In this document: in pieces, positions 54,220 through 57,813 of the stretch
How positions within the stretch are numbered: position 1 is the stretch's first letter
Layout: every line of letters begins with the position of its first letter
Assembly (NCBI GenBank): GCA_963818475.1
Contig: CAWFSF010000002.1
Coordinates: 64,001 to 128,000 of the forward strand
Direction of reading: 5' to 3'
DNA from: Nitrospirota bacterium
Lineage (GTDB): Bacteria; Nitrospirota; UBA9217
DNA: 64,000 nt
The notes under the pieces: generated by a model
What the model was told of the DNA's origin: nothing
The model's database searches: none
The model's input: only the letters and a program-made list of their open reading frames with translations
Translations under genes and position numbers: made by a program

Positions 54220-54555
54220 TTATTTCATGTCCTCAATCGAAATGTCCTTTGCTTCCAAAAGCTGTGCAAGCAATAAGAAGCCGCCGCAGGGTGGCAAGGT
54301 GCTGTTTTCCATAAAGTCGCAGTCCTGTTCATGAAAGGGGCAGGCCATGCACACCGTGCGAACCAGAAGCTTTTCACCGGTCCTGTTCCGGGGTTGCTCC
54401 GCCCTCTTGCCGCCGACCGGAATTCCCTGCAACGCGAGCCGTTCGAGAACAAGATATCCCTGGCATGCAAGCTCCTCATTCTTGCCGGGCTTATAGTATG
54501 AGCAGAATCCCAAACATACCGTCTGCACGAGATCAGTTTTTTGATCCATATTCAT
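54220..54555 (-). CDS. small Cys-rich hypothetical protein, divergent from the radical SAM gene
   Basis: CLGFCSYYKPGK....C and CMACPF....CDF......PCGG (7 Cys). Confidence 0.7.
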   Translation of the reverse strand: MNMDQKTDLVQTVCLGFCSYYKPGKNEELACQGYLVLERLALQGIPVGGKRAEQPRNRTGEKLLVRTVCMACPFHEQDCDFMENSTLPPCGGFLLLAQLLEAKDISIEDMK

Positions 54556-54680: not shown

Positions 54681-55823
54681 ATGAGGTGCTATCTTTCAAA
54701 ACGGGCGGTCATCAAATGGCTGGAGACCCCGTCGGTCTACCAGCTCGCAAAAGATGAGCTGCACGAGCTGGATCAGGATTCGTTCCAGTTCCTGCAGGAC
54801 TGCGCCGGCGAGGACGGATGCACCAGCCGTGACGGGGCCTTCATCGACTATTGTATCGACGAGGGGTTGCTCACGACAAACCAGGTCCAGCAGCAGCGCC
54901 CGCCCGTCGTCCCTTCGCCGACACCTTCCCTGCGCTATCTTGAGCTGCAGATCACGAATGCCTGCGATCTTCGGTGCCGTCACTGCTATATTGGAGACCA
55001 CAAGGCCGACGAGCTGCCTGCACCCCGGATCCGCACGATCCTGACCGAGTTCGAGCGAATGCAGGGGCTCCGCGTCATGATCACCGGCGGAGAGCCGGCT
55101 CTTCATTCAGGCTTTGACGAGATCAATAATATGCTTCCCGATTTCATGCTGCGCAAAGTGCTGTTCACCAACGGCGTGTCATTCAATAAGGAACGGCTTC
55201 GAACCCTGAAGGTTGACGAGATACAGGTCAGCATCGACGGACTCGGGAAAGCACATGACACTGTTCGGGGCGCCGGGACCTTCGAACGCTCGATGCAGAC
55301 GGTCAGACTGGCTCAGGATGCGGGGTTTGACGTCTCGATCGCGACCATGGTCCATACCGGCAACCTCGGCGACTTTGATGCCCTGGACTCGATGTTCAGA
55401 ACCATGGGGATCAAGGACTGGACCGTGGATGTGCCTTGCATCGCCGGACGTCTGGAGAAGAACGCCGGACTGCAGGTAAGCCCGGATGTGGGCGGGAAAT
55501 ACCTGGGATACGGCTATGGTGCTGGCCTGCACTCCTCGGACGCGGGGTACGGCTGCGGCCTGCACTTGATGGCTGTCATGGCGGACGGCACGGCGGCCAA
55601 GTGCAGCTTCTACGGCGAGCGCGGCGTCGGCAGTGTGGCAGAAGGCCTCGCCGCATGCTGGAGCAGGATCGCTCCGGTCCGCCTGGATGAGCTTTCCTGC
55701 AATTGTGAGTACCGCGAAGCCTGCCGGGGCGGGTGCCGGTACCGCGCCGAGCTCAGCGACGGTCCCCGCGGGAAAGACCGGTACCGCTGCAGGCTCTATG
55801 GTATACTGGATGAAAAGATCTGA
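54681..55823 (+). CDS. radical SAM/SPASM protein with N-terminal RRE-like extension (putative peptide maturase)
   Basis: CDLRCRHC, TGGEP, SIDG; C-terminal C-x15-C and CxC-x5-C-x3-C...C; about 80 aa precede the SAM motif. Confidence 0.88.
   Translation: MRCYLSKRAVIKWLETPSVYQLAKDELHELDQDSFQFLQDCAGEDGCTSRDGAFIDYCIDEGLLTTNQVQQQRPPVVPSPTPSLRYLELQITNACDLRCRHCYIGDHKADELPAPRIRTILTEFERMQGLRVMITGGEPALHSGFDEINNMLPDFMLRKVLFTNGVSFNKERLRTLKVDEIQVSIDGLGKAHDTVRGAGTFERSMQTVRLAQDAGFDVSIATMVHTGNLGDFDALDSMFRTMGIKDWTVDVPCIAGRLEKNAGLQVSPDVGGKYLGYGYGAGLHSSDAGYGCGLHLMAVMADGTAAKCSFYGERGVGSVAEGLAACWSRIAPVRLDELSCNCEYREACRGGCRYRAELSDGPRGKDRYRCRLYGILDEKI
55799..55807 (+). promoter_or_regulatory. extended -10 (TGgTATACT) for the small peptide gene
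   Basis: Lies within the last codons of the radical SAM gene, 70 nt upstream of ATG 55878. Confidence 0.45.
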
Positions 55824-55877
55824 TCGGGACAGCGACGTGCTTCACGATATCCTGTGTTGAAGAAAGGAGGTGCCTCC

Positions 55878-55940
55878 ATGACGATCAAGAAGGTCACCCG
55901 AAAAATGGCAACAACCTGCAAATGCAAAAGCTCCTGCTGA
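55878..55940 (+). CDS. 20-aa Cys-rich putative RiPP precursor MTIKKVTRKMATTCKCKSSC
   Basis: Strong AAAGGAGGTG SD 7 nt before the ATG; immediately downstream of the rSAM/SPASM gene; followed by a hairpin. Too short for the ORF track. Confidence 0.75.
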   Translation: MTIKKVTRKMATTCKCKSSC

Positions 55941-55963
55941 TCCGGCCGTTCGCGGTCTAACTG

Positions 55964-55993
55964 AGAGCCCGTGAAGAACGCCTTCCGGGCTCT
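55964..55993. terminator. hairpin between convergent genes
   Basis: AGAGCCCG(T)GAAG-loop-CTTCCGGGCTCT; weak U-tract. Confidence 0.55.
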
Positions 55994-56015
55994 GCAACTT
56001 TCCTACGCTGTCCGC

Positions 56016-57335
56016 TCAAGGCGCAAAACCATCCAACAATCTGATAAATTCATTTCTTGCCGCTTCACTGGTCAATATCCCCTCATGCGTCTCATTGAAC
56101 CCGTAGATCCTTGTCGCAGCAGACTGCAGTGAAGGAGGTAGCTGGCTTTTTAGAGTGACCACCCCGTCTCCGCTGTCTCCCATCTTTACCCTTGACTGAT
56201 CCTGATAGGTGAAAAAGAGATGGAAAGGCAGTTTTTTCGGGAACGGCTTCTGTCCCAGGTATATCAGGAAATCGCTGCCGGTCGCAATGTCGCGCCAGGC
56301 CGGGACCACTATCGGTGCATTTTCAACTCCGGTCCGGGCGGAATCATTGCCATCATAAGGTGTGGCAAAAGAGACATAGAGGGCAAGGGAGGCGGATTCT
56401 TCTTTCGCACTAAGCTTGTCGATCGCCGACCGTGCAACAAGCCCGCCCATGCTGTGGGCCGCCAGAACGGTCAGGTGTCTCTTTTTTTTCGAATTCGCCG
56501 CCAGGTTCTCGATGACTTGCGCGAGCAGTGCGCCAAGCTTGTCCAGCGGCAGTCCTGATGGATAATAAAAAAAGAAGGGCTGAAAACGGTTTCGGTCCAG
56601 CCCCTCGACCATGAATTTCCAGTCACGGGGAGTGCCGGAAATACCATGCACGAACAGAACGGTGGTCTTTCTGTTGTCATACTCCTCGAGTCCAAAAAAA
56701 AATCCCTGGATGTGGGCGATCAAAGCGGTCGGATTGTAAAGGCCTTCGGCGCCGAACCGGGGGTCGAAAAACTCATCGTCAAGCGAAGCATAGAGGTAGC
56801 CGGCGGGCCGTACTTTGACAGCGACACGGAATTCGGTCCTGCCCGGTTTTTCAAAATCCAGACCGAGGGATGGTCCGTCAACGATCGTTCCGTCCTTTGA
56901 ACCTTCCAGGCTTACGTTCGCTGTGGAGGACCCCACCAATTCATTTCGCTCGAAATCTCCATCGTGGTTCAGATCGGCAAAAATGTACAGCCTATACTCC
57001 CCCTTGGGGAGAAAGGCCATGTAGTAGTCTGCGGTATCTTTGAACTGAACCACCGCCACTTTTTCTTCCTGCCGGTACTGACTGCTGGTGGCGATGAGCA
57101 GCAGCGGCTCCCGCCGCTCACGGGGTTTGACGAGCGGACCCACGAGAACCAGCGAATCCTCGGGCGCAACCCTGTTCAGGACCGACATGGTCGGAAGCCT
57201 GTCAAAGGTTTTTTGCCAGTGCGCCTTGCGGGTATAGAATCCGAAGTAGCTGCAGCTGGACAGGATCAGGATGCAGGAAAAGAACACTGCAACGACAAGA
57301 ACATTTTTCATTAGTCTGGTAGTATTATGTTCCAT
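56016..57335 (-). CDS. alpha/beta hydrolase lipoprotein
   Basis: LSSC lipobox, FVHGISG, AHSMGG, GDGVV, H near the C-terminus. Confidence 0.85.
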   Translation of the reverse strand: MEHNTTRLMKNVLVVAVFFSCILILSSCSYFGFYTRKAHWQKTFDRLPTMSVLNRVAPEDSLVLVGPLVKPRERREPLLLIATSSQYRQEEKVAVVQFKDTADYYMAFLPKGEYRLYIFADLNHDGDFERNELVGSSTANVSLEGSKDGTIVDGPSLGLDFEKPGRTEFRVAVKVRPAGYLYASLDDEFFDPRFGAEGLYNPTALIAHIQGFFFGLEEYDNRKTTVLFVHGISGTPRDWKFMVEGLDRNRFQPFFFYYPSGLPLDKLGALLAQVIENLAANSKKKRHLTVLAAHSMGGLVARSAIDKLSAKEESASLALYVSFATPYDGNDSARTGVENAPIVVPAWRDIATGSDFLIYLGQKPFPKKLPFHLFFTYQDQSRVKMGDSGDGVVTLKSQLPPSLQSAATRIYGFNETHEGILTSEAARNEFIRLLDGFAP

Positions 57336-57540: not shown

Positions 57541-57813
57541 TTATGCGGCCCTGTTCTTGAACGCCAGCCGCTCTTCAAAGTTTTTGATGAACTGAGCGAC
57601 CTGCACCCCAAGATAGACGCACTTGATATTATTCATGCACTCCTCGGCGTCTTTTTTTTCAATGAGGGTCTTCAGTTCCTCTCCCTCCCGCCTGAAGGTT
57701 ACAATGTATGCATTCTTAGCCGCCTCGAAATCAACTTCCGCAGAAAGACGATGTTCCCTGATCTCTGGATACATCTCCAGGATTTTCTCTTTTAATGCAG
57801 CATGGGTAAACAT
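57541..57813 (-). CDS. conserved hypothetical protein (90 aa)
   Basis: AAGGAGG RBS; LKEKILEMYPEI...DAEECM..IKCVYLGVQ. Confidence 0.75.
   Translation of the reverse strand: MFTHAALKEKILEMYPEIREHRLSAEVDFEAAKNAYIVTFRREGEELKTLIEKKDAEECMNNIKCVYLGVQVAQFIKNFEERLAFKNRAA

Follow-up and report, generated by a model that had tools for sequence, protein, structure and literature searches.

A 20-residue cysteine-tailed peptide, a radical SAM/SPASM enzyme and a cysteine-rich protein: a candidate peptide-maturation system of Nitrospirota and other phyla

The SCIFF peptides of Clostridia (CteA-CteB, Tte1186a-Tte1186) are encoded beside a dedicated radical S-adenosylmethionine (SAM) enzyme, which carries a SPASM domain and a recognition element (RRE) for peptides that are made by the ribosome and modified after translation (RiPPs). 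The SCIFF peptides have about 45 residues and six cysteines, are near-universal in Clostridia, come without a conserved protease or exporter and are suspected of a housekeeping, intracellular-type role. Sactipeptides act as secreted antimicrobials, come with long leaders, proteases and exporters, and are patchily distributed. In the mycofactocin (MftA/MftB/MftC) and pyrroloquinoline quinone (PQQ; PqqA/PqqD/PqqE) systems a tiny precursor modified at or near its C-terminus is accompanied by a radical SAM/SPASM enzyme and a small accessory protein, and inheritance is vertical and housekeeping-like. Here we describe a locus in a 64,000-nucleotide stretch of a Nitrospirota genome (assembly GCA_963818475.1, contig CAWFSF010000002.1, positions 64,001 to 128,000; the window), which is composed of a radical SAM/SPASM enzyme gene, an open reading frame (ORF) of 20 codons starting 54 nt past the enzyme stop codon, and a divergent gene for a cysteine-rich protein of 111 amino acids. 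The first two had been pointed out in an initial annotation of the DNA, and both are present as described. The system is probably that of a radical SAM/SPASM-matured peptide, of which neither the precursor family nor the accessory subunit has been described and whose distribution is cofactor-like.

Neither NCBIfam nor Pfam has a model that covers the peptide, and the enzyme lies below every NCBIfam family cut-off (best 79 bits against 380), as do three distant members of its family, in the kind of search that the initial annotation had suggested as a test of novelty. The likeness to SCIFF is in the short cysteine-rich peptide beside a dedicated enzyme, in the near-universal presence within a clade of anaerobes, in the lack of a conserved protease or exporter, and in CteB being among the best structural matches of the enzyme. 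The differences are in the peptide, which has 20 residues and three cysteines and so falls outside SCIFF, in the third, cysteine-rich subunit, which is sometimes fused to the enzyme, and in the range, which here comprises Nitrospirota, Desulfobacterota, Actinomycetota and one archaeon. The sactipeptide maturases SkfB and AlbA are radical SAM enzymes with an N-terminal peptide-binding domain, and form thioethers; SkfB is the best match of the enzyme both by sequence and by fold, but identity to it is only 19% and the score against its curated model is 58.1 bits with a cut-off of 300. The AlbA model matches distant members of the enzyme family only (49-70 against 850).

With mycofactocin and PQQ the locus shares the tiny precursor, the type of enzyme, the small accessory protein, the housekeeping-like inheritance and, as far as can be deduced from the peptide, modification at or near the C-terminus. 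It differs in that the accessory is here an unrelated helical protein with seven cysteines and not a PqqD-type RRE, and in that no conserved peptidase or further enzymes are found nearby; scores against the MftC and PqqE models are 68.5 (cut-off 265) and 48.6 (cut-off 381.35). The Geobacter 'geopeptide' system was considered as an identity and rejected, since no such model matched and the term was not found in the literature; the GeoRSP model (TIGR04303) gave 54.9 against a cut-off of 400, and 63-96 with distant members. In Methanococcus voltae the radical SAM/SPASM enzyme CrpC, which has an RRE, is encoded beside its cysteine-rich products and ranthionine links have been shown (PMC13692751). 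In distinction to the 20-residue peptide, the substrate there is a large protein made of repeats, and CrpC is of another family, TIGR04463 (PMC13692751). No description of the present system was found among the papers listed on radical SAM/SPASM RiPPs, ranthipeptides, SCIFF or the carrier taxa, nor was the core string CKCKSSC.

The peptide gene and its inheritance with the enzyme

Homologs of the 20-codon ORF were found at 39 loci, which have 39 distinct DNA sequences encoding 29 distinct peptides, all of the same length. Seven residues are invariant (I3, K5, C14, C16, K17, S19 and C20). Over the 20 codons the third position varies at 19, the first at 12 and the second at 11. A Shine-Dalgarno site is found 6-11 nt ahead of the start codon in all 39 loci, in agreement with the strong site noted at the outset. 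The invariant residues, the third-position variation, the ribosome-binding site and the co-occurrence with the enzyme detailed below identify the 20-codon ORF as a true gene. Five out of five peptide variants were absent when looked up among some 15 billion predicted proteins of a large collection, in keeping with its having been called unannotated, and gene callers have missed this gene entirely, although the peptide is among the most conserved sequences of these genomes. The source genome carries one copy, with no convincing paralog among 27 short cysteine-tailed ORFs.

The survey set comprised 61 related genomes, 43 with the enzyme and 18 without. The initial annotation had proposed looking for a conserved peptide downstream of related enzymes, and conservation holds down to enzymes of 34-44% identity. 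Of the first 30 related loci, 29 have the 20-codon homolog on the downstream side of the enzyme, the exception being genome G006, and in 14 further loci it is near the enzyme in nine. Of the other five, one (G039) has the peptide on a separate contig, two (G046 and G037) have a truncated enzyme contig and the peptide elsewhere in the genome, and G006 and G010 have no peptide. A degenerate pattern of the tail matched in 40 of the 61 genomes, as compared to two matches for the reversed control pattern. With G046, added by a profile search, the peptide is beside the enzyme or in the same genome in 41 of the 43 genomes that have the enzyme and in none of the 18 that lack it, as expected of a co-inherited precursor. 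Within the family of the source genome, 35 of the 36 other members have the enzyme. The distribution is that of a vertically kept core gene, the three genes forming a syntenic core set of the family, and fits a cellular role better than it fits a typical secreted natural product.

A scan of the GTDB species genomes gave 13 full-length members of the enzyme family, in genomes named as metagenome-assembled genomes (MAGs) of Nitrospirota, Thermoleophilia and other Actinomycetota, Syntrophaceae, Desulfarculaceae, Geobacteraceae and Desulfobacterales. The peptide is present in 11 of these loci, nine times ending in cysteine; of the others, one locus is truncated and one has no peptide. Two Actinomycetota loci encode MRITKIPRRKGGTCKCNKSCG, with an extra terminal glycine, and the three variants in which the C-terminal cysteine is followed by another residue have Gly or Ile there. 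The core common to all variants across the taxa is C-[KE]-C-x-x-[ST]-C. In six loci of the Desulfobacterota type the order is peptide, cysteine-rich protein and enzyme on a single strand, in distinction to Nitrospirota, where the peptide follows the enzyme. In a MAG of Geoglobus (Archaeoglobi) the peptide MRIKKVERRRIGVCKCGVSC is followed by a single-module cysteine-rich protein of 57 amino acids and then by the enzyme. The linkage of peptide and enzyme has therefore been kept through rearrangement, in other gene orders, on another contig (G039) and in other phyla, and ties the peptide to a dedicated radical enzyme in no fewer than three bacterial phyla and in one MAG of an archaeon.

Architecture of the enzyme and of the cysteine-rich protein

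The CxxxCxxC motif and the SPASM-like cysteine set reported in the initial annotation are both confirmed. Pfam recognises the radical SAM domain only, and the cluster motif is invariant in 41 aligned homologs. Of the seven SPASM cysteines six are invariant in the same alignment and the last, C370, is at least 90% conserved. The SPASM motif is CX9-15GX4C ... CX2CX5CX3C ... C, and the spacing here is C292-x10-G303-x4-C308, then C340-x-C342-x5-C348-x3-C352, then C370; the second block thus opens with CxC in this enzyme, and with Cx2-3C in some homologs. The AlphaFold model has a mean predicted local distance difference test score (pLDDT) of 94.4. Its top Foldseek matches in the PDB are SkfB (E 2.9e-16, TM 0.61), SuiB and CteB, with alignments of 365-458 columns, followed by anSME; the epimerase EpeE is also among the structural matches. 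By sequence too the closest solved structure is SkfB (E 1.1e-15). The NCBIfam models for mycofactocin, PqqE and thioether maturases score alike and cover the enzyme core only. With its cluster motif, fold and seven-cysteine SPASM region the enzyme has the architecture of a radical SAM/SPASM peptide maturase of RiPPs.

The N-terminal extension, which had been put at about 80 amino acids, is of about 85 and is predicted to be an RRE-like (PqqD-like) domain. It is modelled as four short strands followed by helices 32-41 and 52-60 (pLDDT 90-96), the middle helix seeming shortened relative to the PqqD fold, and has the conserved motif LKxLExPxxYxxxxDELYELDxxxFxFL. In the Atlas, 26 of the 30 named hits fell in a PqqD-carrying set (score 0.90), and the full-length model superposes on the RRE-bearing maturases SuiB and CteB. 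The domain also has cysteines at positions 41, 47 and 58, located at the expected middle helix of the PqqD fold; among 31 N-terminal sequences C41 is invariant and C58 at least 90% conserved.

The initial annotation had regarded the enzyme and the peptide as a minimal cassette, which does not hold, since the conserved cysteine-rich protein encoded upstream on the opposite strand belongs to the system too. Its profile has a match in 39 of the 43 genomes with the enzyme but in none of the 18 lacking it, and a fortieth genome (G055) has a weak single-module match directly upstream of the enzyme. Comparison of its two halves by hhalign shows them to be related (E 5.7e-5, 39 columns), and the protein is therefore a tandem duplication of a module of about 50 residues with the pattern C-x2-3-C-x-[YF] ... 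C-x-G-[YF]-x2-L. In Geoglobus, Thermoleophilia, Actinomycetota and a single Nitrospirota locus, the enzyme has upstream of it a single-module form of 57 to about 100 amino acids. Neither Pfam nor NCBIfam has a family for this protein. The model is all-helical (pLDDT 76.5) and a fold search of the PDB gave no match at E <= 0.001; the Atlas returned unnamed Nitrospirota look-alikes only. Unlike the peptide, it is present in the collection of predicted proteins.

In all five of the long representatives of the enzyme family that were examined (469-513 amino acids) this cysteine domain stands ahead of the RRE-like, radical SAM and SPASM parts, and at loci L052, L056 and L059 the cysteine module is in frame with the enzyme. 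Two of the fused domains were compared with the separate protein by hhalign, with probabilities of 99.4% (E 5.9e-21) and 98.3%. The three parts thus co-occur and the fusions are natural, and such fusion to the enzyme N-terminus in other lineages argues for the cysteine-rich protein as a subunit rather than a substrate of the enzyme. It would be a new accessory fold, and the fusion makes its role directly testable.

Proposed maturation and alternative explanations

With moderate confidence we take the three parts to be a peptide-maturation system in which the 20-residue peptide is the substrate of the enzyme and the product likely carries thioethers. The peptide would be translated from its own strong ribosome-binding site, and its basic N-terminal half (M-T-I-K-K-V-x-K-K) would serve as a short leader docking on the RRE-like domain. 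Hydrogen atom abstraction by the enzyme would follow within the core at the C-terminus, T-C-K-C-K-S-S-C, and at least one of the three cysteine sulfurs would be joined to a carbon of a neighbouring residue, most likely giving thioethers of the sactionine or ranthionine type. In CteB a seven-cysteine SPASM domain reportedly leaves one iron of an auxiliary cluster free for a substrate cysteine. The cysteine-rich protein would act as an accessory subunit, probably binding metal or Fe-S, for substrate handling or for delivery of electrons or metal. The modified peptide is probably kept whole inside the cell in a housekeeping role, because no protease or exporter is conserved and the genes are a near-universal syntenic core set of the family. 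The first observation of the locus is confirmed, and its interpretation as a RiPP or peptide cassette, with a putative thioether or metal-binding chemistry, is partly supported. The eight-residue core would be a very small and defined substrate for studies of radical SAM/SPASM chemistry.

Several points weigh against this interpretation. The RRE predicted at the outset is supported by the topology of the model and by the whole-model matches to RRE-bearing maturases, but its sequence-level signal is weak: PF05402 matches two of 31 members with a best E of 0.017, a profile search of the PDB with the domain gave no hits, and hhalign comparison to two PqqD sequences was not significant. A leader of 12-13 residues is unusually short. 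The enzyme is far under the cut-offs of the curated thioether maturases (for SkfB as given above, for StsB 62.8 against 625), and the chemistry is drawn by analogy with known maturases. Finally, G006 and G010 (98% and 100% complete) have an intact enzyme, with all cluster cysteines kept and R at the otherwise invariant Q182, and neither the peptide nor the cysteine-rich protein is detectable in them. The enzyme can therefore persist without its partners.

More tentatively, the modified peptide could be, instead of an antibiotic or a signal, a cofactor-like or metal- or sulfur-handling molecule of strict anaerobes, of an age that would let Bacteria and Archaeoglobi share it, and made by an enzyme complex in which the two-module cysteine-rich subunit binds metal or Fe-S. 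If this cofactor-like role is right, the peptide would be a new peptide-derived cellular factor of a standing comparable to mycofactocin or PQQ, and a housekeeping factor of any such kind would be a previously unknown piece of anaerobe physiology in groups relevant to sulfur, iron and carbon cycling.

The alternative which survives best, although we judge it improbable, is that the enzyme does modify the peptide but by a chemistry other than thioether formation, that is a C-C or C-O crosslink, an epimerisation, an MftC-like oxidation near the C-terminus or a step towards an excised small cofactor. RRE-bearing SPASM enzymes catalyse many reactions, and besides thioether enzymes the structural matches include SuiB, which makes a Lys-Trp C-C link, and the epimerase EpeE. 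The similar, core-only scores of the three groups of NCBIfam models point the same way, as do the position of the core at the extreme C-terminus in all 39 Nitrospirota loci and the housekeeping distribution, which resembles that of cofactor systems. Against it, the three cysteines are the most conserved residues, no conserved protease or further tailoring enzyme is nearby, and the variants continuing into Gly or Ile indicate that a free C-terminal cysteine is not required.

It is less likely again that the peptide stays unmodified or is a thiol peptide merely loaded with metal (copper, zinc or Fe-S), with the cysteine-rich protein as its partner and the enzyme acting on another target. The CxCxxxC tail and the seven-cysteine partner do resemble metal ligands, two gene neighbourhoods would suit such a function, and G006 and G010 have the enzyme alone. 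One of the neighbourhoods is in the Geoglobus MAG, where a second peptide copy, MRIEKVRKRKLGVCKCHSSCI (L129:1501-1563, minus strand), lies away from the enzyme and adjoins genes for two proteins, one with DUF411 (E 4.6e-17) and one with a cytochrome c domain, which may link it to the handling of copper or to redox processes. The other is in G054 (L036:1317-2865), a distant Nitrospirota genome, where the genes directly upstream of the enzyme and the peptide encode a cysteine-desulfurase-like class-V aminotransferase and a scaffold protein of the NifU_N type. However, the peptide is found in none of the 18 genomes without the enzyme, the enzyme bears a domain resembling a peptide-docking one, and the cysteine-rich protein is fused to the enzyme in several lineages.

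We are more doubtful still that the 111-residue protein is the real substrate, as CrpA is for CrpC, leaving another role to the peptide. The Methanococcus report does provide a precedent for radical SAM/SPASM thioethers on a neighbouring cysteine-rich protein (PMC13692751), and the co-occurrence of the 111-residue protein with the enzyme is as tight as that of the peptide; yet its N-terminal fusion to the enzyme in five representatives is a better fit for a subunit, it has neither a peptide-like leader nor repeated CxxQ/D motifs, and TIGR04463, the family of CrpC, is not among the 25 best NCBIfam matches listed for the enzyme. That the small ORF, which is absent from gene calls, has no function as a peptide and is a chance ORF, an attenuation leader or part of an RNA element is hardly credible, as its amino acids are conserved through synonymous change, its length, Shine-Dalgarno site and stop are kept in other gene orders, contigs and phyla, and the region has no Rfam match.

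Locus layout and regulatory features

The coordinates of the features are collected in Table 1. Two regulatory elements reported in the initial annotation hold in part. The extended -10 motif is present, but it has no -35 box and a scan for the sigma-70 consensus called no plus-strand promoter at the peptide gene; at 13 of the 39 loci the pattern TGnTAnnnT stands no more than 80 nt ahead of the peptide gene, as compared to 95 of 2000 random windows. The downstream hairpin is likewise present, with 8 of 200 shuffled sequences folding equally well, but it lacks a T tract and was not called as an intrinsic terminator by the scan. Most related loci have a hairpin of the type gagcccgg...ccgggctc 3' of the peptide gene, and in 27 of the 39 a structure with z < -2 lies downstream of this gene.

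Table 1. Features of the peptide locus, in positions of the window.
Feature	Position	Strand	Basis or remark
Cysteine-rich protein, two modules, 111 aa, seven invariant Cys	54220..54555	-	divergent from the enzyme gene
Radical SAM/SPASM maturase gene, 380 aa	54681..55823	+	ORF; PF04055 E 6.9e-20
RRE-like (PqqD-like) domain, predicted, residues 1-85	54681..54935	+	model topology
CxxxCxxC radical SAM cluster motif, C95-x3-C99-x2-C102	54963..54986	+	invariant, 41 aligned homologs
SPASM region, seven Cys (C292, C308, C340, C342, C348, C352, C370)	55554..55790	+	41 homologs
Extended -10-like motif TGGTATACT	55799..55807	+	within the 3' end of the enzyme gene; without -35 box
Shine-Dalgarno AAAGGAGGTG	55863..55872	+	5 nt ahead of the peptide ATG
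20-codon peptide gene, encodes MTIKKVTRKMATTCKCKSSC	55878..55940	+	ORF, homolog loci
GC-rich hairpin 3' of the peptide gene	55962..55996	+	-27.5 kcal/mol, z -1.97
DUF676 alpha/beta hydrolase, 439 aa, lipoprotein-like N-terminus	56016..57335	-	separates the peptide gene from the p90/rubrerythrin genes

The neighbouring genes in the window encode subunits of a pyruvate/2-oxoacid:ferredoxin oxidoreductase, CorA, the DUF676 hydrolase, a rubrerythrin and DnaJ. As had been stated, no protease or exporter adjoins the enzyme and peptide genes in the window, and none is conserved nearby in the related loci. The alpha/beta hydrolase was considered as a part of the system and rejected, being found only in six loci of the same genus.

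One metatranscriptome run, whose library may contain DNA, gave an identical contig of 153 nt at 55676-55828, which covers the 3' end of the enzyme gene and nothing across the peptide; all other RNA runs gave small shares only. On the minus strand at 57541..57813 there is an ORF of 90 amino acids, without a Pfam family, which many loci of the family conserve beside their rubrerythrin gene.

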